Notes under the pieces: generated by a model
What the model saw: the letters and a program-made list of their open reading frames with translations, nothing else
Databases searched by the model: none
What the model was told of the DNA's origin: nothing
Source: a virus
Taxonomy: Duplodnaviria; Caudoviricetes
DNA length: 64,000 bases
IMG/VR virus record: IMGVR_UViG_2675903060_000001
Location: 42,864 to 106,863 of that record
Strand: one strand, 5' to 3'
Part shown: positions 1-64,000 of the stretch, piece after piece
Layout: every line of letters begins with the position of its first letter
How positions within the stretch are numbered: the first letter of the stretch is position 1
Program-made: the position numbers and the translations under genes

Positions 1-1
1 C

Positions 2-517
2 CGCCGGGACGCCCTGGTCTGGCGCTGCGCCTGGAAGGTCGCCAAGTTCTGGGGCGACCCCACGCCCGGCGCCGTCCCGTACGACGTGATCGAGGGCGAC
101 GGCAATCTGCTCATGCACGGCGGCGCGTCCGCGATCTGGCAGGCGCTCCTCGGCAACGGCACCGCCACCGCGGGCCAGGGCCTCACCTTCTTCAACGCGG
201 CGAACGCCCACGTGGGCGTCGGCGACTCCACCACGGCGGCAGCCGCGACCCAGACCGACCTCCAGGCCGCCACCAACAAGGTGCGCAAGGCGATGGACGC
301 CGGCTACCCGCAGCACACGGACGGCACGGGCAGCGGCAACGCCACCGTGACCTTCCGCGCCACCTTCGGCACCGGCGACGCGAACTTCGCCTGGAACGAG
401 TGGGGGATCTTCAACGGGGCGGCGGGCGGCCGGATGCTGAACCGCAAGGTGGAGAACCTGGGGTCCAAGAGCGCTGCCGCGTCGTGGCAGCTCACCGTCA
501 CCCTCACCCTGGCGTAG
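2..517 (+). CDS. Virion structural protein (tail-collar/fibre-base-like), 5' truncated
   Basis: Frame is open back to the window start (RRDALVWRCAWKVAKFWG...); GDANFAWNEWGIFN...MLNRKV motif typical of actinophage fibre-associated proteins. Confidence 0.6.
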   Translation, partial: RRDALVWRCAWKVAKFWGDPTPGAVPYDVIEGDGNLLMHGGASAIWQALLGNGTATAGQGLTFFNAANAHVGVGDSTTAAAATQTDLQAATNKVRKAMDAGYPQHTDGTGSGNATVTFRATFGTGDANFAWNEWGIFNGAAGGRMLNRKVENLGSKSAAASWQLTVTLTLA

Positions 518-521
518 TCCC

Positions 522-1985
522 ATGCCTGCGGCGGTCCGCCAAGTCACGTCGGCCCCGTCCGGCACGGCAGCCGCGTTCACCTGCGCCCGCCCGCCCACCG
601 CCGTCGCCGGGGACCTGCTCGTCGCCTACCAGGCCGCCGACATCGGCGACCTGACCGTCATGGGCGCCCCGTCCGGCGGCGGGACGTGGAACCTGCTCGT
701 CGCCCGCCAGTGGGGGTCAGGCTCCGGCGCGGGCGTGAAGCTCTGGTACAAGACGCACGGCGCGTCCGAACCGACGAACTACAGCTTCTCCCAGAACGGC
801 CAGGCGGACGGCCTCGCCATCGTCGTCGCCCTGTCCGGCGCGGCCACCCCGATCCTGTACCAGCCGCTCGACACCTACACCCCGAACGTCTTCCCAACCA
901 GCCACAACACGCCCGGCATCACGCCAGGTGGGCCGGATGACGTCGAGCTGCGGTTCATCGGATCGCCGTCCGGGTCGGCCACCACGTGGGGAGCACCCGC
1001 CGGCTTCACCCCCGGCACGAGCGTGCAGTCGCAGATCTACACCACGGCCTCGCTCGCTCACCGCGTCCTGAGCTCGTCAGCCCCGACCGGCACCGCGGCA
1101 TTCACGTCCTCGCCCGGCCTGTCGCTGACGATGGGGTTCACGCTCGCGATCCCCTCGGCCGGTCCGGCGCTGGTGACCAAGAGCGGCAGCGACACCGCCG
1201 TGGCGGCCGACCTCGCGACGCCATCGGTGACGCTGATCCGCCCGGACTCGGCCACGCTCACCGAGGAGGCGGCGGCGGGCCCGGCCGCCGCCGACGCCGC
1301 CACCGCAGCCGAGGACGCGGCGGTGGCCGCCGGGCCCGGCACCGGCGACGCCGCGGCCCTGGCCGAGCAGGCATCCACGGTCTCGAGTCCTGCCCGCGTC
1401 GAGACGGGCGCGCTGGCGGACGTGTCCGCGCTGGTCGTCTCCCTGTTCCGGGACGACTCCGCCTTCCTGGTCGAGCAGGCCAACGTCGGGCTCGCCGCCC
1501 TGGACGCCGCCACGCTCGCCGAGACGGCGGCGCGGGAGGAGACGATCGGCCCGTCCACCGGGGACGCGGCGGGCACCGCCGAGACGGCAGCCGTCGCCGG
1601 CGCGGCGGGCGCGGCCGACGAGGCGGCCCTGACCGAGTCGGCGCGGGTGGACGTGCTCAAGCAGTCCAGCGACTCGGCGGCACTCGCCGAGCACGCCGAC
1701 GCCGGCCCCGTCGCCGCCGACGCGGTGGCCCTGACCGAGTCGGCGTCGGTGCTCGTCGTCATCGACGCCTCCGACAGCGTGACCGCCGCCGACGCGGGCG
1801 CCGCGCTCCGGCCGGTCGCCGCCATGGACTCGGCGACCGCCACGGACTCCGCCGCGGTGGCCGAGGTCGGGCGGGCGCTCGACAGCGCGGACGGGCCGCG
1901 CCGCCTGTGGCACGCCAGCCTCGCGCCGCGCCCGTGGCGCGCTGAGCCGCCCCGCCGGTCCTGGTCCGCGACGCACCTGACGTAA
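522..1985 (+). CDS. Fibre/whisker-like virion protein with C-terminal repeats
   Basis: N-terminal beta-rich domain (AGDLLVA...LWYK...EPTNYSF) plus about 13 D-x-A-x-L-x-E-x-A repeats. Confidence 0.6.
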   Translation: MPAAVRQVTSAPSGTAAAFTCARPPTAVAGDLLVAYQAADIGDLTVMGAPSGGGTWNLLVARQWGSGSGAGVKLWYKTHGASEPTNYSFSQNGQADGLAIVVALSGAATPILYQPLDTYTPNVFPTSHNTPGITPGGPDDVELRFIGSPSGSATTWGAPAGFTPGTSVQSQIYTTASLAHRVLSSSAPTGTAAFTSSPGLSLTMGFTLAIPSAGPALVTKSGSDTAVAADLATPSVTLIRPDSATLTEEAAAGPAAADAATAAEDAAVAAGPGTGDAAALAEQASTVSSPARVETGALADVSALVVSLFRDDSAFLVEQANVGLAALDAATLAETAAREETIGPSTGDAAGTAETAAVAGAAGAADEAALTESARVDVLKQSSDSAALAEHADAGPVAADAVALTESASVLVVIDASDSVTAADAGAALRPVAAMDSATATDSAAVAEVGRALDSADGPRRLWHASLAPRPWRAEPPRRSWSATHLT

Positions 1986-1995
1986 GGAGCCCACG

Positions 1996-2322: not shown

Positions 2323-3897
2323 ATGCCGCTTCCGGACCATGACCAGGAGTGGCCGCCGCCGCACATCCGGCGCGAGATGCGGCTGTATGAGGAGTGGGGA
2401 GCCTGGTACGCGGGCGACCCGGACCGGCTGGCCGACGTGTACGGCGCGTCCGGGGCGGTGCACGGCATCGGCCTGGACCCGAAGGGCTGGGACCGGCCGA
2501 ACAAGAGCTTCGGCGGCTGGCTCCAGCGCGCGGCACGCTACTTCTGGGGGACGCCGGTCCCGGCCGGGCAGGTCCGCTCCACGAAGCTGCACGTGCCGAT
2601 CGCCGGAGACATCTCCGCGACCAGCGCGGATCTTCTGTTCAGCGAGCCGCCGACGTTGAGGATCGCCGGGAAGAAGTCGCAGGCCCGCCTCGACAAGATC
2701 CTGCGGGACGCCGGGGTCTACGGGGCGCTCCTGGAGGCAGCCGAGACCAGCAGCGCGTACGGAGGCGTCTACCTGCGGGCCGGCTGGGACACGGAGATGT
2801 ACGACCACCCCGTCCTCAGCGTGCTCCCGCCGGACGCCGCCGTGCCCGAATTCCGGTACGGCAAGCTCGCCGCCGTCACGTTCTGGCGGGTGCTGGCCGA
2901 GGACGACGACCGGCAGGTGTGGCGGCACCTGGAACGGCACGAGAAAGGCCGCGTCTACCACGGCCTGTACCTGGGCACGCCCGACCGGCTCGGCATGCAG
3001 GTGCCGTTGGAGGACCACCCGGAGACGGCGATCTACGCCGACCAGGTGGACGAGAGCGGCGGGTTCGACTCCTACTACCCGCGCGGCCTGCTCGTCTCCT
3101 ACGTGCCGAACATGCGCCCCCACCGGCTGATCCGAGGCACCAGCCTGGGCCGCTCCGACTACCAGGGCGTCGAACACCTCATGGACGCCCTGGACGAGGT
3201 GTGGACGAGCTTCATGCGCGACTTCCGCATCGGCAAGGGCCGCGTGATCGTGCCGGACATCTTCCTCGACAGCCTCGGCCGCGGCCAGGGCGCGTCGTGG
3301 GACCCGGACCGGGAGATCTACGCGGGGCTCGGCATGCTGCCGCCGCCGGGGTCGGCCGCCAACAGCATGTTGACGCTGACGCAGTTCGCGATCCGGGTCA
3401 AGGAGCACGTGGACGGCGGGAAGGCGCTCGCCGCCCAGATCCTGCGCGGCGCCGGATACTCGGCCCAGTCCTTCGGGGAGGCGGACGGGTCCGGGCAGGC
3501 CGTCACCGCGACCGAGGTCCACTCCCGCGAGCGTAAGTCCTTCAGCACGCGGGGCCGGAAGACGGGCTACTGGAACCCCACGCTCCAGTGGGCGCCGGAC
3601 GTGCTGCTGTCGATCGACCGGGCCGTGTTCGGGCAGAAGGTGGCCGCCGACAAGATCGAAGTGCATTGGCCGGACGGCATCCAACCGGACCCGGAGTCGC
3701 TGGGCCGTACCGTCGAGCTGTTCAACCGGGCCCAGGCCATGTCGCTGGAGACGAAGATTCGCACCCTGCACCCGGAGTGGGACGACCACCAGGTCATCGA
3801 GGAACGCAACCGTCTGCGCGACGAGCTCGGCCTGAACGTGCCCGACCCCGACACGCTCGGCGACGTGCTCGTGCCCGACGCCGCCGGCGACGACTGA
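2323..3897 (+). CDS. Phage portal protein (SPP1/A118-like)
   Basis: 524 aa; LHVPIAGDI...ADLLFSEPP, GRSDYQG, LDEVWTS, TATEV, MSLETKIRTLHPEWDD motifs. Confidence 0.92.
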   Translation: MPLPDHDQEWPPPHIRREMRLYEEWGAWYAGDPDRLADVYGASGAVHGIGLDPKGWDRPNKSFGGWLQRAARYFWGTPVPAGQVRSTKLHVPIAGDISATSADLLFSEPPTLRIAGKKSQARLDKILRDAGVYGALLEAAETSSAYGGVYLRAGWDTEMYDHPVLSVLPPDAAVPEFRYGKLAAVTFWRVLAEDDDRQVWRHLERHEKGRVYHGLYLGTPDRLGMQVPLEDHPETAIYADQVDESGGFDSYYPRGLLVSYVPNMRPHRLIRGTSLGRSDYQGVEHLMDALDEVWTSFMRDFRIGKGRVIVPDIFLDSLGRGQGASWDPDREIYAGLGMLPPPGSAANSMLTLTQFAIRVKEHVDGGKALAAQILRGAGYSAQSFGEADGSGQAVTATEVHSRERKSFSTRGRKTGYWNPTLQWAPDVLLSIDRAVFGQKVAADKIEVHWPDGIQPDPESLGRTVELFNRAQAMSLETKIRTLHPEWDDHQVIEERNRLRDELGLNVPDPDTLGDVLVPDAAGDD

Positions 3898-5783
3898 TGA
3901 GTGCGCCGACGCTGGCGCTCCCGGCCGCGCAGCAGGAGGCCGCGCAGATCGAGGCCGCTCTCGACCACGCCCGCGCGGTGGCCGCGATCTACTGGCAGGC
4001 CGAGCGCGAGCTGCTGCGCGTCGTCTCGGAGGCCCTGGCCAAGCGCGAAGGCGAACCGGAGTACGCCGGGCCGCGCTTCGCCGAAGTGCGGGCGCTGCGG
4101 CGCGAAGCCGACCAGATCGTGCGGCGGCTGGAACGGCTGTCGGAGCGGCTGGTCACGGACGGCGTCAACGCCGCATGGCGGCGCGGCGCGCAGCGCGCCA
4201 CCGGCGACCTGGAACGGCTCGGCTCCCGCAAGGGCATCCCGCAGGGGCAGGGCGTCATCGAGATCGCCCGGCGCGCGACACGGCTGGTCGCCTCCACGCA
4301 GCCCGGAATGCGGTCGGCGCCGGAGTTCCTGTTCCAGCAGATCGTCAACCAGGTGGCCGCCCAGGCGCTCACCGGCGCGATCACCCGCCGCCAGGCCCAG
4401 GCCCGCCTCCTGGACCAGGTCGCCCGCCGAGGCATCACCGGCTTCACCGACACCTCCGGCCGGGTCTGGTCCGCCAGCGCGTACGCCGAGATGGCCACGC
4501 GGACCGCGATGGCGCAGGCCGCGACGGACGGCCACCTCGCCACCCTCGCCGCCAACGGCATCGACCTCGTCATCGTCTCCCGGCTGCCGTTCACGTGCGC
4601 CCGGTGCGCCGTCTGGGAGGGCACGGTCCTGTCGCAGGAAGGGCCGATCGGGTGGCGGCGCGAGGAGTCCGCCGTCTCCGACGACCTGGTGGACGTGCTC
4701 GTGGAAGGCACCGTGACGCAGGCCCGCGCCGCCGGGCTGCTGCATCCCGGCTGCGGCCACACGCTCGGCGCCTACCTGCCAGGCGTGACCCGCCCGCCGC
4801 GGCCGGCCATGCATCCCGCCGGGCCGGACGGCTATCGGGCGTCGCAGAAGATGCGCCGCCTCGAATCCGAGCTGCGCGCCGCGAACCGGCAGGCGGCGGT
4901 CGCGCTCGACGCCGACCAGCGGCGCAAGGCGGCGGCCCGCGCCGACCGGCTCACCCACCAGATCCGGGACCACGCGAAGACGTCGGGCATCCCCGCCCGC
5001 GCCGACCGGGTCCGGCAGGAGACGATCCCGCGTGACCTCGACCAGCGCACGGACGAGGAACTAGCCGGACTGCTCGGCCGGTGGGCCGACGACGAGGCAG
5101 CGGTCGCCCGCATCACCGACGTGCTGGAGCAGCGCGACCGCGACCGCGACCGGCAGCGGGACGAGCGGGTGCGCGAAGCGGTCGCCGACCTGCCGCCCGA
5201 GTTCGCCAACGCCGGCGACGACCAGGTGCTGGAACTGGTGCGGCGCTTCTCCGACGAGGGCGACCCCGTCGCGCTGGAGCGGCTGCTGGAGGCGCTCGAC
5301 GCCCGCGAGCAGAACCCGACGTGGTCGTGGCGGTCCGACGACACCGCCGAGGAACGCGCCGTCACCGACCTCATCGCGGACGGCATCGACCCGATGGACG
5401 CCTACGGGCAGGTGTACGGCGTGGACCCCGAGCAGATGCGGCGGCAGGACTCCCGCGCGCACGCCGAAGCCCAGCGGCGGCCGGGCGAGACCCTGGACCA
5501 GGTCGTCCGCCGCCTGTACGACGAGTGGCTTGAGCTTCAGTTCATCGCCGCCGAACGCTACGCCCGCGGCGTCCTCACCAACGCGGCCGGGCGGGCGGCA
5601 GGGATCGACGGCCGGACGCTGCTGTCTGGGCCGCAGTCCCGCGCCGACAAGTACGCCTCGGAGGAGCTGCGCGCGTGGTGGGAGCAGCACCCGCGCATGA
5701 CGCTGGTGGAGTTCCGGGCGCAGATGCTCGGCCGCGCCTCCGACCGCAAGGCCGCCCAGCGAGCGAAGGAGCAGCGGCGGTGA
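3897..5783 (+). CDS. Phage minor capsid protein (MuF-like) with long C-terminal extension
   Basis: ATG overlaps portal stop (TGATG); GFTDTSGRVW..SAYAEMATRT, C..C..WEG.VLS, GLLHPGCGH motifs. Confidence 0.85.
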   Translation: MSAPTLALPAAQQEAAQIEAALDHARAVAAIYWQAERELLRVVSEALAKREGEPEYAGPRFAEVRALRREADQIVRRLERLSERLVTDGVNAAWRRGAQRATGDLERLGSRKGIPQGQGVIEIARRATRLVASTQPGMRSAPEFLFQQIVNQVAAQALTGAITRRQAQARLLDQVARRGITGFTDTSGRVWSASAYAEMATRTAMAQAATDGHLATLAANGIDLVIVSRLPFTCARCAVWEGTVLSQEGPIGWRREESAVSDDLVDVLVEGTVTQARAAGLLHPGCGHTLGAYLPGVTRPPRPAMHPAGPDGYRASQKMRRLESELRAANRQAAVALDADQRRKAAARADRLTHQIRDHAKTSGIPARADRVRQETIPRDLDQRTDEELAGLLGRWADDEAAVARITDVLEQRDRDRDRQRDERVREAVADLPPEFANAGDDQVLELVRRFSDEGDPVALERLLEALDAREQNPTWSWRSDDTAEERAVTDLIADGIDPMDAYGQVYGVDPEQMRRQDSRAHAEAQRRPGETLDQVVRRLYDEWLELQFIAAERYARGVLTNAAGRAAGIDGRTLLSGPQSRADKYASEELRAWWEQHPRMTLVEFRAQMLGRASDRKAAQRAKEQRR

Positions 5784-5947
5784 GCCTCACCGACCTCGAC
5801 CGGCGCGCGGCCATCACGACCGCGCGGTGGGCCGCGCTGCACGACCGGCCGGTCACCGAATGCCCGTACGACCCCGCCGGCGACGCGCGCTCTCAAGCGC
5901 TCGCGCTGCTGTGGGTGCGCATCTACCGCAGGTACCGGCCGGCCTGA
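5780..5947 (+). CDS. Small Rmf/CrpP-fold-like protein
   Basis: GTGA overlap with upstream stop; 55 aa with PVTECPY...LWVRIY motif. Confidence 0.55.
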   Translation: MSLTDLDRRAAITTARWAALHDRPVTECPYDPAGDARSQALALLWVRIYRRYRPA

Positions 5948-6026
5948 CGCCGGGCCGTACGCCTGTGTGATCCGTTGGGCCCGCCTGGCGCGGGCCTTCC
6001 TCTTGTCCGGCTCCGGGAGGGCCAAG

Positions 6027-6932
6027 ATGTTCGATCACTCGTTGCTGACGACGCCTGGCGCGATCATCGGCTACCGCAAGTCCGGCGCCCCGATCCGGCT
6101 CATCGCCGGAGGCAGCGGCGAAGGCGACGGCTCCGGCGGCGACGGCGGCGGCGCTGCTGGCGGATCTCAGTTCGGCGGCGAAGGCCAGCCGCAGGACGGC
6201 GGCGCCCAGCAGGACGGCGGCACGTCAGCGGCCGGGGTCACGCACCCGGACCGGTCCTCGTGGATCAACCCGGACGAGCCGATCAACCCTGACGCGATCA
6301 AGGTGGATCAGCTTCCGGCGTGGGGTCAGAAGCTGTTCCGCGACCTGCGGAAGGAAGCGGCCGACTACCGGTCCAAGATGGCCGACGCGCAGAAGGCCGC
6401 CGACGAGGCCGCCAAGAAGGCAGGCCCGTCGCCGGAGGAGGTCACCGCGCAGGTGCGGGCCGACTTCGCGCAGCAGATCGGCCAGGCGCTCGGCCTGATC
6501 GGCGGCGAGCAGGAGAAGCAGCTCACGCCCGAGCAGGTGATCGACCAGCTCACCGCTGAGAAGGACACGACCGCGAAGGAACGCGATCAGGAGAAGGAGC
6601 GGCACCGCCGTGCCCTGATCGAGCTGGCGGTGCACCGCGCCGGCTCGCAGATGGGCGCCGACCCGGAAGCCCTCCTCGACTCCAGGTCCTTCGTGAAGAA
6701 GGTCCGCGACCTGGACCCGGACGGCGAGGACTTCGCGACGAAGCTCGGCGAGGTCATCCAGCTCGCGATCGATGAACACCCGAAGTACAAGGCGGGCTCC
6801 CTGGCGGGGCCGCCTCCCCGGAGCGGAGGGGAGTTCGCCGGCGGGCCTGGCGCGCGTCCCAGCGGCTCCGAACCCACCATCGACGACTTCCGGAAGCGCC
6901 GCGCGGCGGCGGCCAAGGAGAAGTCGTCCTAA
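6027..6932 (+). CDS. Capsid scaffolding protein
   Basis: GGGAGG RBS; LPAWGQK..RDLRKEAADYR coiled coil, ADPEALLDSRSF; directly upstream of capsid gene. Confidence 0.85.
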   Translation: MFDHSLLTTPGAIIGYRKSGAPIRLIAGGSGEGDGSGGDGGGAAGGSQFGGEGQPQDGGAQQDGGTSAAGVTHPDRSSWINPDEPINPDAIKVDQLPAWGQKLFRDLRKEAADYRSKMADAQKAADEAAKKAGPSPEEVTAQVRADFAQQIGQALGLIGGEQEKQLTPEQVIDQLTAEKDTTAKERDQEKERHRRALIELAVHRAGSQMGADPEALLDSRSFVKKVRDLDPDGEDFATKLGEVIQLAIDEHPKYKAGSLAGPPPRSGGEFAGGPGARPSGSEPTIDDFRKRRAAAAKEKSS

Positions 6933-6980: not shown

Positions 6981-7931
6981 ATGCCGAACACGTTCCTCAC
7001 CCCGTCGATCATCGCCCGGCAGGCGCTGGCGAACCTGTATGAAACCACGGTCATGGCCCAACTGGTCCACCGCGACTACGAGGCCGAGTTCGTGAACCGG
7101 ATCGGCGACACGATCACGATCAGGAAGCCCGCGATCTTCGAGGCCAAGAGCTTCAACCGGACGACGGGCATCGAGATCCAGAACGCGACCGAGGGCAGCA
7201 TTCCGATCACCCTCGACAAGTTCGTTGACGTCAGCTTCGCTGTTACGTCGGAAGAGTTGACGTTGGACATCATCGACTTCAACGCCCAGCTCCTTGCCCC
7301 GGCGGTCGAGGCCATCGCGCAGCGGATCGACCGCGACATTTTGTCGCTGCGCGCCGACGTCCTCCAGAGGGTCGGTACGGCCGGGACCACGGTGACCGGC
7401 GTCGGCGGCCCCGTCACCGGCACCAACGAGTGGGCGTGGGACAACCCGCGCGTGGTCATCGACGCGCGCCGCGTGCTGAACCAGCGGAACGTGCCGCCCA
7501 CGGACAGGTTCGTCGTGGTCGGGCCGGAGATCGAGGCGCAGTGGCTCGGCGACCCGCTGTTCCACCAGGCCGACACCCGAGGTGACACCGAGGGTCTGCG
7601 TGAGGCCAACCTCGGTAGGCGCGTCTTCGGTCACGACGGCTACCAGACGCAGAACATCAAGGGCCCGTCCGGCACGCCGACGACCGGCCAGCCGAACACG
7701 GAGATCGGCGTCGCATTTCATAAGACGGCGTTCGCGTTGGTGACGCGCCCGCTGGTGTTGCCGCAGGGCGCCGCGAACGCGCACGTCGAGTCCTACAAGG
7801 GATTCGCGTTGAGAGTGGTCATGGGCTACGACCAGGCCAAGAAGCAGGACATCGTCAGCATCGACACCCTGTACGGGGTCAAGACGCTCGACGCCGACCG
7901 CGCCGTGAAGATTCACGGGGTCGTCGCGTGA
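6981..7931 (+). CDS. Major capsid protein (P22 coat-like)
   Basis: AGGAG RBS; NTFLTP.II..ALANL, GDTITIRKP, AFHKTAFALVTRPL, SIDTLYGVKTLD. Confidence 0.92.
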   Translation: MPNTFLTPSIIARQALANLYETTVMAQLVHRDYEAEFVNRIGDTITIRKPAIFEAKSFNRTTGIEIQNATEGSIPITLDKFVDVSFAVTSEELTLDIIDFNAQLLAPAVEAIAQRIDRDILSLRADVLQRVGTAGTTVTGVGGPVTGTNEWAWDNPRVVIDARRVLNQRNVPPTDRFVVVGPEIEAQWLGDPLFHQADTRGDTEGLREANLGRRVFGHDGYQTQNIKGPSGTPTTGQPNTEIGVAFHKTAFALVTRPLVLPQGAANAHVESYKGFALRVVMGYDQAKKQDIVSIDTLYGVKTLDADRAVKIHGVVA

Positions 7932-8585: not shown

Positions 8586-8595
8586 GCAGGCCGAC

Positions 8596-56580: not shown

Positions 56581-57224
56581 GTCGCCAACTCGCGCTGCGG
56601 ATGTCGCCCGTGGTCGCGTTCTACCAGGTGGACGTGGACGAAGTCGTGGAACTGCTGATCCGGTGGCGGCACCCGCTCCACCTCCCCAGCGACGAGCACC
56701 CCGAGGGCCGACCGTACAAACGCCCGTACGGCTCCCTGGGTTTCGTCATGGAGGACCGCGGCCGGGTGGCCGCTGCCGTGATCCTGGCCAGCACCGTGAA
56801 CACCTCGGTCTGCAAAGACCGAGGGCTGCACCGGTACAACACGGTGGACCTGTCCAGGATCGCGCGCAGCCCGGACCGGCGCGACGAGCAGTGCCTGCGG
56901 GCGGTGCTGCGCATCGCGCGGCTCTACCTGGTGCCGTTGTGGCTCGGCACCTACGCCGGGTGGGACGCCCACTCGGCAGAGAAGTGCGGCGGCCAGCCGC
57001 GCATCGAGGCGGTGTCGTCCACATCGCTGCCCGGCACGCCCGGCAACCTGTACCGGTTCGACGGCTGGGAGAAGCTCCGCACCTCCAAGGGCCCCATGGG
57101 CGGCGGCCGTCAGAAGCCTTCCGCCGCGAACGAAATCGCGGACGGGGCGCGCGGCCTGTGGGTCTACCGCTACCCCGAACCGATCACCACCACCACCACG
57201 AAGGAGATCACCCATGTCGGATAA
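56577..57224 (+). CDS. Mom-like GNAT-fold DNA modification protein
   Basis: LL.RWRHPL...VDLSRIAR...RAVLR...PGNLYRFDGW matches the Mom-family (E/D)LxR and GxxYRxxGW pattern. Confidence 0.6.
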   Translation: MSRQLALRMSPVVAFYQVDVDEVVELLIRWRHPLHLPSDEHPEGRPYKRPYGSLGFVMEDRGRVAAAVILASTVNTSVCKDRGLHRYNTVDLSRIARSPDRRDEQCLRAVLRIARLYLVPLWLGTYAGWDAHSAEKCGGQPRIEAVSSTSLPGTPGNLYRFDGWEKLRTSKGPMGGGRQKPSAANEIADGARGLWVYRYPEPITTTTTKEITHVG

Positions 57225-58221
57225 CAGCGCCATCGAATGGCTCCGAGGCCCGGACGGACGACGCGGCGCCACCTGGAACTTCGTCACCGGCTGCACGAAG
57301 GTGTCGGAGGGGTGCCGCCGCTGCTACATCGAACGGCAGACGCCGATGCGGGTCGCCGGCCGCCGGTTCGACGGCCCGCACATCGGCGCCACCACCGGGG
57401 TCATGCTGCACCCCGAGCGGCTCGACATGCCGCTGAAGAAGCGCGACCCGCTTCGCATCTTCGTCAACAGCATGTCCGATCTCTGGCACGACGACGTGCC
57501 CACCGAGATGGTCGCGCACGCGTTCGCCGTGATGGCGATGACGCCCCAGCACACCTATCTGATCCTCACCAAGCGGCCCGGCCCCATGCGGTCGATGCTC
57601 CGCTCGGATGACTTCTGGAAGGCAGTCGGCGAAGCAGGCAGAGGCATCGCGTTCGCGCGAGTCCGGGGCAAGTACCGGTCGGCGTCCCCGATGCAGCTCA
57701 CCCCGGACTCCAGCGCGGACGGCTACTGGATGCCGGTCCGGCCGCTGCCGAACGTTCAGATCGGGGTGTCCACCGAGGACCAGGCCACCGCCGACCTGCG
57801 CATCCCGACGCTGCTGGCCACCCCGCACATCGCCGTCCGGTGGATCTCGGCGGAACCGCTGCTCGGGCCGGTCGTGCTCCGCGATGAATGGCTCGCCGCC
57901 GACCCCGAGAGCAGCACGCCCGCGCTCGACTGGGTCGTCGCCGGCGGCGAGTCCGGCACCGACGCACGGCTCATGCACCCGGACTGGCCGCGCAGTCTCC
58001 GCGACCAGTGCACCGCAGCGGGGGTGCCCTTCTTCTTCAAGCAATGGGGTGCCTGGACGCCGACCGGCATGGTCGGCATCGGCAACCAGGGGCCGCGCTT
58101 CGCGTACATCGGTGACCCCGTGGATGAGCACGGCCACCGCATCGTCATGGAGAACGTCGGCAAGCACCAGGCGGGCGCCATCCTCGACGGCCAGACGTGG
58201 ACGGAGTACCCCGATGCCTGA
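57214..58221 (+). CDS. DUF5131 / phage Gp37Gp68 family protein
   Basis: SAIEW...TWN.VTGCTKVSEGCRRCY, FVNSMSDL, ILTKRP, ISAEPLLG, WVVAGGESG, FFFKQWG. Confidence 0.93.
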   Translation: MSDNSAIEWLRGPDGRRGATWNFVTGCTKVSEGCRRCYIERQTPMRVAGRRFDGPHIGATTGVMLHPERLDMPLKKRDPLRIFVNSMSDLWHDDVPTEMVAHAFAVMAMTPQHTYLILTKRPGPMRSMLRSDDFWKAVGEAGRGIAFARVRGKYRSASPMQLTPDSSADGYWMPVRPLPNVQIGVSTEDQATADLRIPTLLATPHIAVRWISAEPLLGPVVLRDEWLAADPESSTPALDWVVAGGESGTDARLMHPDWPRSLRDQCTAAGVPFFFKQWGAWTPTGMVGIGNQGPRFAYIGDPVDEHGHRIVMENVGKHQAGAILDGQTWTEYPDA

Positions 58222-58609
58222 CCTGACCCTCTGGGAAGAACTGGAGACGGCGGCTGAGATCATCCTCGCCGCAGCCGCGCAGGCCCACGACGGCCCGTGG
58301 ATCGCCGTCCAAGATGCGGTCTGCTACGAGAGCGGGTCGTGCATAGCCGCCGTCTACGAGGGCGCCAACGACGCCACCTGGATGGCGCTGAACGACCCCG
58401 CGATGGGGCCTCTGTTCGCCGCCGTCCTGAAGGACGCCGCCCAGAGATGGAAGTCCGAGGTGCGGTTCCAGGCGGACGGCTGGTACCACCGGGCGTGCGA
58501 TGGCGTCTCCGGCCCTGGCACCGACGAGGACTGCACGTGTTTCGCCTCCGTGCTGGGCCTCGCGCGGCACATCCGAGCGAAGTGGGCGAAGGTGTCGGGC
58601 CGTGGGTAG
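58214..58609 (+). CDS. Hypothetical protein
   Basis: GGAG RBS; A..GPW...DATWMAL.DP. Confidence 0.6.
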   Translation: MPDLTLWEELETAAEIILAAAAQAHDGPWIAVQDAVCYESGSCIAAVYEGANDATWMALNDPAMGPLFAAVLKDAAQRWKSEVRFQADGWYHRACDGVSGPGTDEDCTCFASVLGLARHIRAKWAKVSGRG

Positions 58610-58901
58610 GCGGGTCAAGGTCAGCGGGGACCTGTTCCACGGCCAGGTCCCCGCCGGAGCCGTCTACATCGGCCGGCCCGCGCCGAGCCTGCCGGGGTCG
58701 CCGTTCGCGAACCCGTACAGCGTCAAGACGTACGGGCTGGAGAACGCGCTCGCCCGCTACCGGAAGCATTTGGCCGAGCATCCGGAGCTGGTGGAGCGGG
58801 CCATCGAGGAGATCGGCGACCGGGACGTGGCGTGCTGGTGCAAGCCGGACGCTCGGTGCCACGGGGACATCCTGCTCGCCGCGATGGCGGCCAGGAGGTG
58901 A
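58602..58901 (+). CDS. DUF4326 family protein
   Basis: GAVYIGRP...SPFANPY...ACWC...CHGDIL. Confidence 0.88.
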   Translation: MGRRVKVSGDLFHGQVPAGAVYIGRPAPSLPGSPFANPYSVKTYGLENALARYRKHLAEHPELVERAIEEIGDRDVACWCKPDARCHGDILLAAMAARR

Positions 58902-58905
58902 CCCG

Positions 58906-59808
58906 GTGGAGTTCTTTCTCGGGACGAGCTCGTCTTCCTGGCTCAGGCGGGAGGACGTGGGCGTGCCGCTCTGCGTCGCCTACCCGCGCCTGGCCGCGAT
59001 CAAGGGTGAGCTGCCGCGCGCCGTGGTGCCGTGGATTCTCGACTCCGGTGGCTTCAACGAGGTCACGCAGCGGGGCGAGTACAGGGCCGCGGCGATCGAC
59101 TACGTGCGGGCGGTGCGCCGGTACGCCGACGAGATCGGCAACCTGCGGTGGGCGGCCTGCCAGGACTGGATGTGCGAGCCGCCTGCGCTCGCCAGGTCGG
59201 GCCGGTCGGTGAACGGCCACCAGCACCTGTCGATCGACAACTACATCACCCTGCGCGGGGAGTGGGGGCCGGGCTCCCCGTTCGTGCCGCCGCTCCAGGG
59301 CAACAGCCGAGACGCCTTCCTCCGCCACGTCGATATGTACGCGCGGCGCGGCATCGACCTGACGAGAGCGCCGCTCGTCAGCGTCGGATCGGTGTGCCGG
59401 ATGCAGAGCACGTCGGAGATCGGGCGCGTGCTCGGCGCGCTGGCCAGCCTGGGCCTCAAGATGCACGGCTTCGGTGTGAAGACGCTCGGGTTGCGCGCGT
59501 TCTGGCCCTTCCTTCTCTCGGCTGACTCGCAGGCGTGGTCGAAGAACGCCCGCGCGAACGCCGACGACATCTACATCGACGTCCCCGAACACACCCACCC
59601 CCGCGGCGGCAAGACCTGTTCGAGCTGCCACGTCTACGCGCTGGCCTGGCGGAAGCGGATGCTGGCCAGCCTCCCGGCCGCGCCCTCGCACACGGTGATG
59701 GAACTGCCCGGCATCTACGGGGAGGGGCGGTCCTCCCTGACCAGGGCGGAGCCGCCGCGCGTGCGCTACAGGCCGGGCATCCCCATCTACTCCAGGAGAT
59801 CATCATGA
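58906..59808 (+). CDS. TGT-fold base-exchange enzyme (DpdA-like)
   Basis: AGGAGG RBS; FFLGT...WILDSGGF, QDWMCEP, P.LQG, VGSVCR, HGFGVK, SADS.AWS. Confidence 0.8.
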   Translation: MEFFLGTSSSSWLRREDVGVPLCVAYPRLAAIKGELPRAVVPWILDSGGFNEVTQRGEYRAAAIDYVRAVRRYADEIGNLRWAACQDWMCEPPALARSGRSVNGHQHLSIDNYITLRGEWGPGSPFVPPLQGNSRDAFLRHVDMYARRGIDLTRAPLVSVGSVCRMQSTSEIGRVLGALASLGLKMHGFGVKTLGLRAFWPFLLSADSQAWSKNARANADDIYIDVPEHTHPRGGKTCSSCHVYALAWRKRMLASLPAAPSHTVMELPGIYGEGRSSLTRAEPPRVRYRPGIPIYSRRSS

Positions 59809-60572
59809 CCCAGCTCAACAGCCCTGCCCCCAGCGCGGGACCGGCTGGCCGCTTACATCTCAAGCTCGTCGTCTACCAGCCCCCCGAGCAGGACGCCGGC
59901 CCGGCCGCGCCGCCGATCGGGGTCCCGTACGAGATACGCGACCATCTCGCCCGCAAGGTGGCCGTGGCGCTGGACGTGCTCGCCCTGGCGGAGGCGGATG
60001 GGGTGGCGGCGGTGTGCGCCGCAGCCGCTGAGGACGCGGCGTACCCGCTGAACCAGCTCATCGACTTGTTCGCTGCCCGCTACCAGACGAGCGCGGGCCG
60101 GGCGCGAAGCCATGCGATGCGCATGGTGCGCGAGCGGATGGGCGTGGTGCAAGACCGATGCTGGGAGAAGGTGTCGGCGCGGGAACGCCGGGAACAGATC
60201 ACGTCTCTCGTCCGTGAGGGCCTGTCGGTGGAGGCCATCGCCCAGCGGCTGAAGGTGACCGTACGCACTGTCCTGCGGCACAAGCATGCGGCCGGGCTGA
60301 CCAGCAGGACGTACCTGTACGACGAGTGGGCGCCGCGTATCCTCGGCCATCTCCGCGTGTTCCCGGAGACCGAGTTCAGTGGCGGCGATCTCGCGCGGCT
60401 GCTGCTGGGGGAGCCCAGCAACCGGTTCGTTCCGACGCTGCGCCGCCTGGAGCGTGAGGGGCAGGTCATCTCGGTCGCGTGCATCCGCGACTCCAGTTCT
60501 CCGACCGTCAGGGTGACGCGGTGGCGGCTCGCCCCGGAGGAGGGAGGTGGCAGTGGCGACGCCGAAGTGTGA
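59805..60572 (+). CDS. Multi-HTH DNA-binding protein
   Basis: EGLSVEAIAQRLKVTVRTVLRH plus C-terminal winged helix. Confidence 0.75.
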   Translation: MTQLNSPAPSAGPAGRLHLKLVVYQPPEQDAGPAAPPIGVPYEIRDHLARKVAVALDVLALAEADGVAAVCAAAAEDAAYPLNQLIDLFAARYQTSAGRARSHAMRMVRERMGVVQDRCWEKVSARERREQITSLVREGLSVEAIAQRLKVTVRTVLRHKHAAGLTSRTYLYDEWAPRILGHLRVFPETEFSGGDLARLLLGEPSNRFVPTLRRLEREGQVISVACIRDSSSPTVRVTRWRLAPEEGGGSGDAEV

Positions 60573-60870
60573 GAGCTGCCGGAAGCGGCCCGTCGCGCCC
60601 AAGGCGAGCGTCTGGTGCAGGGCCTGCGGCGACCGGTGGAAGCGCGCAGGGAAGCCCGAGGATGGCCCGCCGCCACCGAAGAAGGGAGGCCGGCCCCGCG
60701 AGGCAGACACCGAGGAGCGCGTGCAGAAGACTCGGGAGCTGCTGGCCGCGGGCAAGGGCACGATGGAGATCGCCCGCCTGTTCGGCGTGCCTGGGTCCAG
60801 GGTGAGCTATTACAAGCGGCGGCTGGCCGAGCGCGGCGAGTTGCCCAAGGCCGTCACATCTCGACGTTGA
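60553..60870 (+). CDS. Zn-finger + HTH small regulator
   Basis: CESC...CRAC; GTMEIARLFGVPGSRVSYY. Confidence 0.7.
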   Translation: MATPKCESCRKRPVAPKASVWCRACGDRWKRAGKPEDGPPPPKKGGRPREADTEERVQKTRELLAAGKGTMEIARLFGVPGSRVSYYKRRLAERGELPKAVTSRR

Positions 60871-60884
60871 CGGTTCCGTCAACG
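60865..60884. repeat. Dispersed palindrome, copy 9 (CGTTGACGGTTCCGTCAACG)
   Basis: Overlaps a stop codon; symmetric substitutions relative to consensus. Confidence 0.8.
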
Positions 60885-60891
60885 AGCTAAG

Positions 60892-60917
60892 CGGCTCCAG
60901 CCTTGAGGCTGGGGCCG
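60892..60917 (+). terminator. Hairpin after accessory operon
   Basis: CGGCTCCAGCC-TTGA-GGCTGGGGCCG. Confidence 0.55.
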
Positions 60918-61115
60918 CTGCCGTTTCACCATGAGCACCTGTAGAGTGCTGGAGGCTGCCGCGTTCAGCCTTCCCCGCAAGCCGATCCGCCCACGCCGGC
61001 TCGGCGCTCAATCGGGGAGAAGGTCCGTGATCGAGCGCCCCCGAGACCGCCGTTCATGTTCCGGTTGATGGTCTGGGCTGACGTGCGTGGGGCGAAGCCC
61101 TGGAAGGACCACCCG

Positions 61116-61826
61116 ATGCCAGAGAACGGCTACGAGAAGAAGCGCGTCCGCGACTACGCCAAGGCGCACGGCCTCACCTACCAGCAAGCCCACCAGGCTC
61201 TTACTGGCGAGCGTGAGCGCCGCCCTGTCGTCTTCGCCGCCGGGCTGACGCAGGACGGGCGTCCCTGGGTCTCCTCCTGGGACGGCGACCCTCACCACGA
61301 TGTGAACCCCGCGTGCGGTCACCACCTGCGTGCGCTGTGCGGCGGGTGCGGCGTCTGCACCACCTGCGACGGCTGCTACTGCGCCGAGCTGGCGCAGAAT
61401 GCCGCCCTGGACGCTGAGGCCGAGCGGGAGATGCGCGAGCACCTGGAGCACGACGAGCACCGGGCCGACTGCTGGCGTTGCGAGCGTGAGCGCGAGGAGT
61501 CCGCTGACTACACCCGCTGCCCGAAGTGCGGCCTGGCCTACCCGGACGGCATCGGCGACCACCACAGGCACAACCCGCCCTACTGCCGCCCGCTCCCGAC
61601 CTACCGGGTGGGCATCGACTGGGGATACCTGCGCGGCCAGCACGTGACGTTGGTCGGCACGCACTACAACATCACCGGGTACGTGCTGCCCGACCAGGAT
61701 GCACCGGACCCCACGGCCTACCACCCGTACATGCAGCTACGCCGGACCGATCCCGGCTATGAGGGCGAGGTGGCCCCGTTCTGCCCGCGTGACTGGCTGG
61801 AGGTCCATCCGGCTCCGGTTCAGTGA
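61116..61826 (+). CDS. Cys-rich hypothetical protein
   Basis: AAGGA RBS; KKRVRDYAKAHGLTYQQA N-terminus; CGH...CGGCGVCTTCDGCYC. Confidence 0.7.
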   Translation: MPENGYEKKRVRDYAKAHGLTYQQAHQALTGERERRPVVFAAGLTQDGRPWVSSWDGDPHHDVNPACGHHLRALCGGCGVCTTCDGCYCAELAQNAALDAEAEREMREHLEHDEHRADCWRCEREREESADYTRCPKCGLAYPDGIGDHHRHNPPYCRPLPTYRVGIDWGYLRGQHVTLVGTHYNITGYVLPDQDAPDPTAYHPYMQLRRTDPGYEGEVAPFCPRDWLEVHPAPVQ

Positions 61827-61887: not shown

Positions 61888-61926
61888 GATCTTGTCTACC
61901 AATCCGCTCGATTGGTAGACAAGATC
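61888..61926. repeat. Perfect 17-bp inverted repeat at the end of the partition operon
   Basis: GATCTTGTCTACCAATC-cgctc-GATTGGTAGACAAGATC; a second GC hairpin at 61848-61878. Confidence 0.8.
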
Positions 61927-62773
61927 ATCCGTTGTCGGGGGCCGGGAGATCCGCCTCCAGCTCCTCCGCCGCCTGCCGCAACCGAGCCGCGAGCTCCCGC
62001 GCCCGATCCGGTGTCTCCACCGCGACCCGGCGCAGTCCCCGCAGGTCACCCAGCGCGCGGAACACCGGCTCGTAGCGCGGCCACACCACCTCCGGCTTCG
62101 GCCCGTCCTGCTTGGCCGCCTCCAGCGCCGGGAGGAACCCGAGGTCACGCGCCGCCGCGTCCAGGCCCGCGCCGGACGTCCGGCCGCGTTCCTCGGCCAG
62201 CTTCCACACCTGCCCGGCCGCCTCCGTGCCGTGCTGATCCACCACGGGGAGGAGCGCGCGGAGCTGCCGCTCGTTCGGCACCTCGTCCGTGACGCCCTCC
62301 AGGGCCTGCATCGCCCGTACCGAGTCGATGAGCTGGTAGGCGCGCGGCCGGGACATGTCCCACCGCTCGTCCACGTACCGCTCGAACGTCGCGAACCCGG
62401 CCGCTTTGTAGAGCTGGTTGTCCCGGATCTCCTTCAGGGCCGGGCCGGCGGTGAGCCGCCAGTACCGTTCGGCCTTCGTCAGGACCTTCTCCACCTTGGC
62501 CCGGGCGCGGGAGATGGTGGAGTCGTAGTGCGCGAACGCCGCCTCCGGGTCGGCGCCGTCGGCCGCGGGCGTGAAGTCCGGCGCGTCGGGGATGTCGGCC
62601 AGCGCGGCGACCGGCGGCACGAGCTGCCCTGTGAGCACCTGTTCGACGCTCTGGTCGGTCATCGGCTCCGCGACCGCGACAGCGGAAGCGACCTGCTCGC
62701 CCGTGATGACCGGCTCCGGCTCGGCGAGAATCCGGGGCCGCTCGGACGGCTTGCCACGCTGGACCTTCGCCAT
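61925..62773 (-). CDS. ParA partner protein (non-canonical, HTH-containing)
   Basis: Immediately downstream of parA; GPALKEIRDNQLYK..GFATFERYV.ERWDMSRPRAYQLI, NERQLRAL; no ParB GxxRxxA motif seen. Confidence 0.7.
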   Translation of the reverse strand: MAKVQRGKPSERPRILAEPEPVITGEQVASAVAVAEPMTDQSVEQVLTGQLVPPVAALADIPDAPDFTPAADGADPEAAFAHYDSTISRARAKVEKVLTKAERYWRLTAGPALKEIRDNQLYKAAGFATFERYVDERWDMSRPRAYQLIDSVRAMQALEGVTDEVPNERQLRALLPVVDQHGTEAAGQVWKLAEERGRTSGAGLDAAARDLGFLPALEAAKQDGPKPEVVWPRYEPVFRALGDLRGLRRVAVETPDRARELAARLRQAAEELEADLPAPDNG

Positions 62774-63640
62774 CTACTTCACCTCGATCTTCAGCTTGCC
62801 CAGGCCGGCCCGCTCGCTCAGGATCGAGGCGAGCGTGTCGTAGTTGTCCGCCATCTCGTTCCCGGCCGACCCGAGAGCCCTGAGCGGGCGCGGCGGGTCG
62901 GAGTCGGCGGCGTCCTTGACCGCCGCTCGCAGGGGCAGCATCGGCAGCATGAGGCCATCTCCGAACAGCTCGGGGATGTTCTCCTTGGTCTGGTAGGCGT
63001 CCGCGCCGAGCCGGGCGTCCACCTTGTTGACGATGTAGCCGATGATGCGGAGGTCGTCCTTGTCGAGCTTCTTCCGGCCGTTGGCGACGAAGTCCCGCAG
63101 AGCGATGGCGCCCTCAATGCCGTCGATCTCGGGGTCCATGACCACCAGGACGTCGTGCGTGGCCTTGAGGACCATCTGCGTGAGGTGACCCAGGTTCGGT
63201 GGGCAGTCCATCAGGACGATGTCGAAGTCGTCGTCGGCACCGTCGAGAGCGACGTCGAGCCGCTTGACCGCGCCGAGGAGGCCCGCTTCGGTGAGCGCCC
63301 GGTTCTCGAGATCGGGCCTGGACGGGATGAGCGTGATGTTGCTGCGGTAAGGCTCTGGCCAGCCGATCTCGGCGAATGCGTCGGCGGCGCACCCGGACAG
63401 GTCGGCGTCGGGCTGTTCGGCGATGGCTCTGAGCACGTCGGAGATGGTGACCTGGTTGGCGGCGAGCAGGGCCGCCAGCCGGCGGCCTGCGTTGCCCTGC
63501 GGGTCCATGTCGATGACCAGTACGCGCATGCCGTGGAAGGCCAGCGCGGCGGCGAGGTTGACGACAGCGCTGGTCTTGCCGGTGCCGCCCTTGTTGTTGG
63601 CGACGGCGATTCTTCGCGCTCGTCGCTGTGGCTGGGTCAC
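62774..63640 (-). CDS. parA: ParA/Soj partition ATPase
   Basis: NNKGGTGKTS deviant Walker A; LVIDMDPQGN; MDCPPNLG; AGGAG RBS before GTG 63640. Confidence 0.95.
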   Translation of the reverse strand: MTQPQRRARRIAVANNKGGTGKTSAVVNLAAALAFHGMRVLVIDMDPQGNAGRRLAALLAANQVTISDVLRAIAEQPDADLSGCAADAFAEIGWPEPYRSNITLIPSRPDLENRALTEAGLLGAVKRLDVALDGADDDFDIVLMDCPPNLGHLTQMVLKATHDVLVVMDPEIDGIEGAIALRDFVANGRKKLDKDDLRIIGYIVNKVDARLGADAYQTKENIPELFGDGLMLPMLPLRAAVKDAADSDPPRPLRALGSAGNEMADNYDTLASILSERAGLGKLKIEVK

Positions 63641-63689
63641 GGTGTCTCCTGTGGTGAGCAAGTCCTGCCGGTGGGCGCTGGGCGACATC

Positions 63690-64000
63690 CTAGGACTGGC
63701 CGCTCTGGTCGAGGTGGTCGAACCACGCGTTCAACGCCTGGGGGATGAACTCCTGGCCGCCCAGCCCCTCCAGGTGGCAGCCGTCGATGAGCCGGGCACG
63801 GGTGTTGGGTTCGAGCCGGGCGGTGATGAGTTTGAGCGCGCTCGGGTCGGCCGCGGGTTCGCTCGGCCGGGGGATGGGGTCGTGCGCGTTGTCGAGCGGC
63901 ATCTGCTCGGGGATGCCGAGCTGGTCGCAGTAGTAGTTGATGGCCTGCTCCCAGACGTCTCGGACGCCCAGGCCGGTGTTTTCGCAGGCGGCGTCCATGC
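63690..64000 (-). CDS. Tandem RHH-like DNA-binding protein, probably 5' truncated
   Basis: Two related units: DAACENTGLGVRDVWEQAINYYCDQL and ITARLEPNTRARLIDGCHLEGLGGQEFIPQALNAWFDHL. Confidence 0.55.
   Translation of the reverse strand, partial: MDAACENTGLGVRDVWEQAINYYCDQLGIPEQMPLDNAHDPIPRPSEPAADPSALKLITARLEPNTRARLIDGCHLEGLGGQEFIPQALNAWFDHLDQSGQS

Follow-up and report, generated by a model that had tools for sequence, protein, structure and literature searches.

The Streptomyces element pZL12/phiZL12 is a plasmid-phage (Zhong et al. 2010, J Bacteriol 192:3747; cited in PMC3583192, PMC4487206 and PMC5431353), for which the title of the original report announces both a plasmid and a lytic phage cycle. 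Its relative pSLE1 carries ParAB together with phage particle genes (PMC4487206). In Nonomuraea gerenzanensis, the self-replicating and prophage-bearing element PhiNon1, which is reminiscent of pZL12, has a size of 59 kb and integrates at a tRNA-Val attB (PMC5431353). We analyzed a stretch of 64,000 nucleotides (hereafter the window; G000:C9:42864-106863), which is the last 64 kb of the 106,863-bp contig C9 of an actinomycete genome. C9 belongs to this already known kind of element and is a variant of the pZL12-type plasmid-phage. It also carries an operon around an FtsK/TraB-like protein. The whole reading proposed here, in which C9 is a phage-plasmid with an operon for TraB-type transfer of double-stranded DNA (dsDNA) between hyphae or hyphal compartments, has in our estimate a probability of about 0.55.

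Surveys of phage-plasmids (PMC7969092, PMC12282955) looked for conjugation genes with models of the relaxase and of the mating-pair formation/type IV secretion system (MPF/T4SS). Such models are blind to the TraB-type systems of actinomycetes, and surveys of this design would miss cases like C9. They regard such elements as virion-borne.

Genes were called by GC3 frame bias, and the larger ones were searched against Pfam, PHROGs and NCBIfam. Coordinates are those of the window unless a contig name precedes them.

A circular element in a Nonomuraea host

The first 95 bp of C9 are exactly its last 95 bp, and neither end matches another contig. Because of this overlap, C9 closes, at the level of the assembly, as a circle of about 106.8 kb. 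The host genome has 10.05 Mb in 40 contigs and about 70% G+C. Neither a second copy of C9 nor an att-like duplication was found in the other 39 contigs by DNA and protein comparison. The profile scan of the genome gave no match to tyrosine integrase (PF00589) on the 106.8-kb C9 and no large serine recombinase was found there; the only recombinase is a 228-aa resolvase (C9:31567-32241, outside the window; PF00239 scan). The preliminary description of the window had proposed that virion, partition and transfer modules share one replicon that has no integrase. On the whole of C9 this holds, as the modules lie on a single circular contig that is unique in the genome. The resolvase gene is the sole part of C9 that recurs, being about 80% identical to one on contig C31. 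At the DNA level this likeness extends to two tandem resolvase genes (C31:8821-10504); C31 is 37.6 kb long and may be another plasmid.

The same description had framed the element by Streptomyces plasmid-phages, which is not borne out. The RecA of the host falls in a 90%-identity cluster of almost exclusively Nonomuraea sequences, and all relatives found for the key genes of C9 come from Streptosporangiaceae. On these two grounds we assign the host to Nonomuraea. Megablast of window 1-25000 gave no match in PLSDB and only a 38-bp match in the tape-measure gene in INPHARED, and tRNA and Rfam scans found nothing.

The phage part of C9 consists of the following genes.

C9:40825-41331, outside the window: TerS, a gene of small-subunit size just before TerL
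C9:41328-42623, outside the window: TerL (Terminase_6N/6C, Terminase_3)
1-517 (start 7 bp left of the window) and 522-1985, + strand: genes of unknown function between terminase and portal, GC3 calls; phrog_3329 (unknown function), with homologues in siblings
2323-3897, + strand: portal (SPP1_portal)
3897-5783, + strand: minor capsid protein 2
5780-5947, + strand: small gene in the head module
5967-6932, + strand: scaffold
6981-7931, + strand: major capsid protein, P22-type coat
7928-10141, + strand: head-tail connectors
10219-11398, + strand: major tail protein and chaperones, assigned by position
11487-13733, + strand: tape measure (tape-measure PHROG)
13733-14614, 15313-16467 and 16488-19217, + strand: distal/minor tail proteins (tail PHROGs)
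19266-22483, + strand: lysis region, including small genes
20851-21621, + strand: endolysin, CHAP and PG_binding
21633-22049, + strand: collagen-like repeat protein, with Gly-X-Y repeats in GPKGDTGKD units

TerL ends 240 bp left of the window, so that the terminase directly flanks the portion first described. By Pfam and PHROG matches the order is canonical, and the head, tail and lysis genes have full-length, collinear homologues in four to five related elements at 45-94% identity. The set of virion, packaging and lysis genes on C9 is complete as judged by family matches and by length against relatives, and the earlier statement that these genes are intact at 2-22.5 kb was confirmed. Since they are kept full length and collinear at such divergence, the comparison indicates that the virion genes are under purifying selection.

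It could be supposed that C9 is merely a plasmid whose block of phage origin forms no infectious virions, or only transducing or gene transfer agent (GTA)-like particles, and that C9 moves by cell contact or not at all. The collinear full-length head, tail, terminase and lysis genes in five relatives (45-94%) argue against this, as do a repressor-type palindrome network that spans the phage genes and a set of RecET, RuvC and DNA-modification genes as found in functional temperate phages. In its favor, there is no close isolated phage (the 38-bp megablast match being all that was found), and the nearest isolated phages, the Hiyaa group, have a different replication module of lytic type. We consider this alternative improbable.

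The plasmid part comprises a replication-like gene and a partition cassette.

40482-41786, + strand: Rep-like winged-helix protein; the database gene model has 392 aa and starts 42 codons further in
61925-62773, - strand: ParB-like partner of 282 aa, downstream of ParA, with no family above threshold
62774-63688, - strand: ParA (AAA_31 / CbiA)

The ParA cassette predicted at 62-64 kb was thus found, with ParA and a ParB-like partner gene. The Rep-like protein had no family match in Pfam, NCBIfam and PHROG searches. Its structure model is confident and shows a generic winged helix only; the profile search of PDB returned only winged helix-turn-helix (wHTH) regulators, and a wide structural search (VIA) gave generic wHTH proteins with Z up to 8.6. 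Its homologues occur on small actinomycete plasmids including N. gerenzanensis pNon2 (38% identical; PMC5431353), and a neighbor cluster in the ESM Atlas is named 'putative Replication protein'. Nearly all of the 74 homologues are from Nonomuraea, strikingly often on contigs of 83-113 kb, and in relatives the Rep-like gene and the capsid gene are on the same contig. The protein is a putative replication initiator. The preliminary description had put a ribbon-helix-helix (RHH) gene and a Rep gene at 40-41.8 kb. A conserved winged-helix protein is indeed encoded there; it belongs to no recognized Rep family, and the RHH candidate (39925-40249) had no Pfam match.

These facts make it highly probable that C9 is an extrachromosomal phage-plasmid, a circular temperate siphophage, of a Nonomuraea strain. 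It is worth noting that the sign of circularity is solely the 95-bp overlap, which is of the type produced by assemblers. Alternatively, the contig could be a chimera of the assembly, or a normally chromosomal prophage in its excised replicative form. Against this stand the same module order in four other genomes (see below), the lack of an integrase, the 39 remaining contigs, in which neither a duplicate of C9 nor an att-like duplication was found, and the presence of ParA; we regard this alternative as very remote.

The FtsK-like operon and its repeat arrays

The operon and its surroundings contain the following features.

26672-27460, - strand: GntR/UTRA regulator (long start codon taken), divergent from the + strand operon
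27470-27700, no strand: divergent control region with three GGTAG-GAA/TTC-CTACC operator-like palindromes (GGTAGGAACTACC-type, at the GntR start)
27742-33927, + strand: operon upstream of the translocase that encodes small, in many cases membrane, proteins without Pfam family
29372-30412, + strand: 346-aa protein in which three predicted transmembrane (TM) segments are combined with a long coiled coil (REL/AEL repeats) and with a helix-turn-helix (HTH) at the C terminus
30417-30633, + strand: non-coding array of 13 direct AGTTCC(C) repeats at 11-12 bp spacing, about one helical turn
34001-36052, + strand: FtsK/TraB-like protein of 683 aa, with an N-terminal TM region, a P-loop motor and a C-terminal winged helix
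36064-36675, - strand: 203-aa gene
37083-37481: RapZ_C-like protein, module tail
37478-38026: NUDIX hydrolase, module tail
38525-39379 and 39379-39705: unknowns, module tail

The FtsK/TraB-like protein had no match in Pfam, NCBIfam or PHROGs, and a single-sequence phmmer search of PDB gave nothing informative. Among 5.8 billion clustered proteins it has 14 homologues, one of which carries a precomputed PF01580 match. The profile of these homologues matched the FtsK motor (E 8e-6) and TcpA of pCW3 (1.6e-5) in PDB, and also EccC and TrwB. In Foldseek, the AlphaFold model gave the FtsK motor as the top match (E 3e-10) with TcpA next. Hydrophobic segments at residues 52-92 are predicted to be transmembrane. 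The Walker A motif is GETGGGKGGG (residues 343-352), the Walker B motif is VDE, and the C-terminal wHTH has a weak AbiEi_4 match, with helices at 620-667 in the model. The predicted domain architecture of the protein is that of TraB. If the operon is a transfer or spread system, the protein would represent a new branch of FtsK-like translocases that escapes detection by sequence. The preliminary description had named the gene traB within a KorA-like-regulated operon. What stands is an FtsK-like protein by profile and by fold, in a module of 26.7-39.7 kb in which a GntR/UTRA regulator is divergent from the + strand operon; the name traB itself finds no match in Pfam, NCBIfam, PHROGs or PF01580.

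Eight small genes of the operon had no match in Pfam. The genes at 31506-32060, 32091-32588 and 32599-33927 are kept beside the translocase in other Streptosporangiaceae elements. A divergent GntR regulator, a NUDIX hydrolase and small membrane proteins are the usual company of actinomycete transfer genes (pSAM2, pIJ101), and C9 has a divergent GntR/UTRA regulator, a NUDIX hydrolase and small membrane proteins. Conjugation by C9 is plausible from this gene content. For the operon by itself, we put mediation of intercellular or intramycelial DNA transfer at even odds or slightly above.

Within the coding sequence of the 346-aa protein, 11 GGAACT repeats lie in the coiled-coil part (29767-29995). 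They are complementary to the AGTTCC repeats of the non-coding array, which lies in a gap of 223 bp after the gene and is the densest AGTTCC cluster on the replicon, so that the two arrays mirror each other. The array at 30417-30633 is a candidate clt-like, centromere-like or iteron-like binding array. The core of the GGTAGGAACTACC-type operator-like palindromes, GGAACT, also resembles the repeat unit of this array. Three CCGGTGCTGGAACACCGG hairpin-like repeats follow these palindromes in the + strand operon leader (27470-27700). No convincing 8-mer repeats like the TraB recognition sequence (TRS) were found at the 3' end of the translocase gene or downstream of it (35.7-37.1 kb).

The same layout, namely an array inside a gene whose end codes for an HTH, followed by a mirrored non-coding array, was found beside the FtsK-like gene in five other elements; in the loci L001, L010 and L013 the family member adjoins that gene. 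The array motifs are element-specific: GTTCCGCC in three, CTCAC/GTGAG in one and TCACCG/CGGTGA in one. They co-vary with the HTH of the 346-aa protein family, identical HTHs going with identical motifs. Siblings of C9 have kept the AGTTCC arrays in spite of a translocase with only 22% identity. Because the motif follows the HTH of this protein and not the wHTH of the translocase, we infer that the arrays are its sites. The membrane-anchored HTH protein presumably binds them and would present the DNA to the translocase.

The mechanism that we propose is as follows. In the plasmid state, the Rep-like winged-helix protein, along with ParA and the ParA partner, would ensure the maintenance of C9, and the phage genes would be silenced by a dimeric repressor on about 20 dispersed palindromes in a stoperator-like manner. 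The operon at 27.7-38 kb, under GntR control, would provide a divergent FtsK/TraB-like dsDNA translocase together with small membrane proteins, a NUDIX hydrolase and the membrane-anchored coiled-coil HTH protein, whose presumed sites (13 AGTTCC repeats and 11 complementary ones in its own gene) would make up a clt-like locus. The operon would most likely serve TraB-type dsDNA plasmid transfer between hyphae or hyphal compartments, independent of virions. C9 may accordingly spread in virus particles as well as by DNA transfer through hyphae. That the regulators at 24-27.7 kb choose between these routes, as the preliminary description had proposed, is a conjecture.

Several observations weigh against this mechanism. 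No PF01580 match was found on C9 at E 0.01, as compared with 21 matches elsewhere in the genome. The chromosomal FtsK/SpoIIIE-family genes of the host are detected by this profile, and several of them lie a few kb from tyrosine-integrase genes. The mean pLDDT of the AlphaFold model is only 59 (70-94 in the motor core). In the clade of the C9 protein, the Walker A motif is GETG[S/G]GKGG, with Gly in place of the Ser/Thr after Lys in five sequences; in the distant clade of the family it is GKS or GKT. Such a P-loop is unusual for an active motor, and the ATPase chemistry of the GKG clade may differ. The array motif does not track the wHTH of the translocase, since L011 agrees with L010 and L013 in this wHTH but has another motif, and tracking of a separate HTH protein is at variance with the TraB-TRS model. 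On a Streptosporangium plasmid and on other Streptosporangiaceae contigs, more distant module versions are often accompanied by SsgA-like genes and a canonical FtsK, which hints at a septum or segregation role. As for the plasmid part, the best Foldseek E value of the Rep-like model was 0.04, and RepA_N-type initiator domains appeared weakly (E 0.04-0.08) among MarR, Fur and ArsR.

The main rival to transfer is accordingly segregation through septa. C9 would be the same phage-plasmid, and the FtsK-like operon would serve vertical inheritance by pumping or tethering copies across cross-walls and sporulation septa, with the HTH protein and its arrays as a membrane-tethered centromere. Arrays that co-vary with a TM/coiled-coil/HTH protein are the usual layout in centromere-binding systems. 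Plasmid-form elements have both ParA and the FtsK-like gene, neither of which was found in the integrated relative described below, and the distant module versions with sporulation-division genes would fit as well. In N. gerenzanensis, ssgA-like genes likewise occur on extrachromosomal elements (PMC5431353). On the other hand, partition is already supplied by the ParA cassette, and it is actinomycete transfer genes that are classically accompanied by a GntR regulator, a NUDIX hydrolase and small membrane proteins. In addition, the module is found on large contigs with no phage genes within 10 kb, as would be expected of a mobile transfer module. Intramycelial spread and conjugation share the TraB machinery in Streptomyces, so that the roles are not exclusive. 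We judge segregation as the sole function to be rather unlikely, and we favor DNA transfer as the role of the operon.

Two side observations concern the distant module versions. On the Streptosporangium plasmid NZ_CP109431.1 (L001, 9790-21094) and on a metagenome contig, the module is accompanied by a MerR-type gene and two sporulation-division genes of SsgA-like type. A canonical FtsK made up of alpha, motor and gamma domains lies downstream, giving two FtsK-type proteins per element. On two Nonomuraea contigs (L033, 108.7 kb; L035, 99.2 kb), a canonical FtsK lies upstream of the Rep-like homologue; one of the two additionally encodes ParB and a sigma factor and has two NUDIX genes. The genome of L033 is without a capsid homologue, and a backbone of Rep-like protein and translocase thus also exists without a C9-type phage.

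A Nonomuraea lineage, its cassette and its palindrome

Four contigs with a Rep-like homologue were taken whole, and every C9 protein was compared with them.

G307:C39, Nonomuraea sp. NPDC050786: 102,810 bp, 95-bp end overlap, close sibling
G306:C335: 112,881 bp, close sibling
G098:C75, N. maritima: 94,716 bp, 38-bp end overlap, more distant (45-79%)
G309:C26: 106,290 bp, more distant (45-79%)

In the two close siblings, most phage structural proteins are 80-94% identical to those of C9. All four contigs have the same circular module order, with the capsid and Rep-like genes on one contig: TerS/TerL, head, tail, lysis, regulators, FtsK-like operon, Rep-like, accessory/DNA-modification, Par and RecET-type early genes. 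This gene order is thus found again on at least four further Nonomuraea contigs of 95-113 kb, which are independent of C9 and of which two have overlapping ends. A misassembly and a recent one-off fusion are thereby ruled out, in agreement with the preliminary description, which had taken the element not to be a recent co-integrate. A gene of 650-700 aa lies just upstream of the Rep-like gene in the three contigs checked (699 aa in G307, 653 aa in G098 and G309; G306 was left out). The proteins of G098 and G307 belong distantly to the C9 FtsK-like family (hhalign probability 99.7 for both, 22-24% identity) and have a canonical GKS Walker A, and G098 has ParA at the equivalent place. An earlier sample of 300 genomes of the family (seven of the genus, with a stricter filter) had given the FtsK-like protein in one other genome; it is superseded by the targeted searches.

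The chromosome of N. thailandensis contains an integrated collinear relative (G004:C2:6459000-6550000; L016-L022), whose TerL and capsid protein are 74% identical. A tyrosine integrase (6548845-6549447) lies beside its Rep-like gene, and C9 queries for ParA and for the FtsK-like module gave no match in it. This comparison links ParA and the translocase to the plasmid state. A second integrase-like gene is located inside this prophage (6503161-6503688).

The flanks of the C9 module are kept in the two close siblings, at 77-79% for 27742-31079, which includes the TM/coiled-coil/HTH protein, and at 51-82% for 36064-38026, which includes RapZ_C and NUDIX. The core between them (31247-36052; four genes and the translocase) had no tblastn match at all in these two siblings, and its position is filled by similar-sized genes of very different sequence. 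The C9 version of the core is 75% identical to one from Nonomuraea sp. NPDC046802, which is located on a contig of 629 kb and has no phage genes within 10 kb of it. Since the core is unmatched in siblings, the flanks are conserved and a 75% match exists elsewhere, we conclude that the cassette of C9 was gained by recombination with other mobile elements, and that the architecture as such is old.

Taken together, one could envisage a Nonomuraea plasmid-phage lineage of about 100 kb with an exchangeable cassette of a so far unrecognized FtsK/TraB-like family at a fixed locus, in which a membrane-anchored HTH protein loads DNA via mirrored arrays of its own sites. This would provide a second route, independent of virions, for spread within the mycelium and from strain to strain. 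In this lineage, integrated relatives would have swapped the cassette and ParA for an integrase. We put this forward tentatively, with odds somewhat below even. If the operon is a transfer or spread system, a tailed phage would keep two horizontal routes over evolutionary time, rather than as a one-off as pZL12 might suggest, and the alternation of an integrase with ParA plus translocase among close relatives would serve as a natural experiment in how a prophage switches between an integrated life and that of a plasmid. The DNA-loading locus, formed by the arrays and the membrane HTH protein, would then be open to testing, and genetic tools might become available for Nonomuraea, the producer of the glycopeptide precursor A40926.

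The preliminary description had also noted that one 20-bp palindrome occurs in the phage, transfer and accessory modules. A perfect 20-bp palindrome that recurs exactly was not found. The recurrent site is a mismatch-tolerant 8+2+8 inverted repeat, GTTGGCGG-ww-CCGCCAAC, mostly flanked by c/g (cGTTGGCGGwwCCGCCAACg, 18-20 bp). Its copies, and the two regulators on the left side of the operon, are located as follows.

6940, 22057, 42491, 43558, 47860, 54522 and 60866: dispersed palindrome with at most two mismatches
11425 and 36903: dispersed palindrome with three mismatches
24319-25092, - strand: GntR/UTRA regulator
25144-26478, - strand: Xre-type HTH_31 regulator (long start codon taken so that the N-terminal HTH is complete)

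The seven copies with at most two mismatches in the window compare with zero expected. On the whole of C9 there are 17 copies, 10 of them outside the window, versus two in the other 9.94 Mb of the genome. Almost all are intergenic, often 3-8 bp past a stop codon and 20-50 bp ahead of the next start, and the central ww is found in both orientations. Because of this placement and both central orientations, a dimeric DNA-binding protein seems to explain the palindrome better than an RNA signal. The copy at 22057 stands directly 3' of the stop codon of the collagen-like protein.

The head, lysis, accessory and early regions hold copies of the palindrome. The part from 22.1 to 42.4 kb has a single degenerate one (three mismatches, 36903). 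The siblings G307:C39 and G306:C335 have 21 and 18 copies, respectively, including a good copy in a sibling at the equivalent of 36903, and none was found in more distant relatives. Since the copies are shared by close siblings and missing from more distant relatives, the palindrome behaves like an immunity-group operator, which would link the phage, accessory and early regions. The claim of a shared palindrome therefore holds for these three regions (17 copies versus two), and does so for the transfer module only through one degenerate copy. As an argument for co-evolution it is weak for the transfer module, where the core cassette has also been swapped.

Seven copies of CGCAACAC at 26157-26672 and a perfect 22-bp palindrome, GTGTTGCGCCTAGGCGCAACAC, at 26492, just upstream of the Xre-type HTH_31 gene, form a candidate second operator system that is separate from the dispersed palindrome. 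Between the lysis genes and the regulators, 22483-24319 (about 1.8 kb) has a lower G+C of 0.62 and almost no confident gene.

The remainder of the window is occupied by accessory and early genes.

42667-61826, + strand: accessory/early block, mostly of unknown function
52558-54519, + strand: C5 cytosine methylase
57301-58221, + strand: DUF5131 / phage Gp37-Gp68
58906-59808, + strand: DpdA-like DNA transglycosylase
59805-60572, + strand: HTH protein

Ten further accessory genes had no match in Pfam. The genes at 51289-59808 are a co-oriented DNA-modification block, which includes a 394-aa gene of unknown function that is 90% identical in a sibling. The block suggests a 7-deazaguanine-type or other modification of the phage DNA. 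The 43 kb of C9 outside the window encode YqaJ exonuclease, RecT, RuvC, Xre/DUF5753 regulators, P450 and methyltransferase. At C9:4618-7843, the cytochrome P450 gene is convergent with Methyltransf_19, and two Xre/DUF5753 regulators flank the pair. This block is conserved in G306:C335 at 66-77% and was not found in G307:C39, save for a weak 28% match to one regulator.

Comparison with known systems

The nearest characterized precedent for C9 is pZL12. C9 shares with pZL12 and pSLE1 the plan of a circular element (about 90 kb in their case) of a mycelial actinomycete with phage particle genes and parAB. It differs in host family (Streptosporangiaceae), and its translocase is not recognizable by sequence as FtsK_SpoIIIE or TraB; pZL12 itself was compared by its published description. 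pSLE1 has integrases, whereas C9 has none. C9 is without nucleotide match among PLSDB plasmids. Streptomyces plasmids of 88-93 kb with a P22-type coat gene have a capsid protein only 26-27% identical to that of C9, and one of them, inspected over half its length, also has ParA.

PhiNon1 comes from the same genus as the host of C9. C9 has 107 kb and no integrase, and no FtsK-like transfer gene is mentioned for PhiNon1 in PMC5431353. In the same species, the 48-kb plasmid pNon2 has the 38% identical homologue of the C9 Rep-like protein (PMC5431353).

With the TraB/clt systems of Streptomyces (pSVH1, pIJ101, pJV1; PMC3583192), C9 has in common a single FtsK-like membrane-associated translocase with a C-terminal wHTH, nearby non-coding short direct repeats, a GntR-type regulator and the lack of a relaxase or T4SS. 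It differs in having no PF01580 match and a GKG Walker A, and in that the repeat motif follows a separate TM/coiled-coil/HTH protein with a mirrored array inside its gene. The NUDIX protein Pif is a transfer-immunity factor. Integrative and conjugative elements of actinomycetes (AICEs) such as pSAM2 resemble C9 in an FtsK-like Tra protein, a GntR-family regulator, a NUDIX hydrolase and small membrane Spd-like proteins (PMC2440964). These elements are 9-24 kb long and integrate by a tyrosine or serine recombinase, whereas C9 is a 107-kb phage without an integrase.

The closest isolated phages by capsid protein are the Streptomyces phages Keanu, Galactica, Spocter and Hiyaa (Hiyaavirus), at 62-64% identity, and phage-like plasmids of Rhodococcus rhodochrous and Prescottella equi have capsid proteins 50-52% identical to that of C9. 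Hiyaa has the same terminase-to-tail order as C9. It encodes its own DNA polymerase, primase and helicase, and Par, Rep-like and FtsK-like genes were not seen in its first 50 kb.

Stoperators of cluster A mycobacteriophages and the conserved inverted repeats of phiC31 are dispersed repressor sites of actinophages. The palindrome of C9 is similar in that about 20 copies lie in short intergenic gaps, are element-specific and are shared only by siblings. It differs in being a symmetric 18-20-bp palindrome of another sequence. From the known plasmid-phages, C9 differs in its host family, its sequence, the lack of an integrase, the unrecognized translocase family, the separate HTH protein with its arrays, and a lineage across several genomes with exchange of the cassette.

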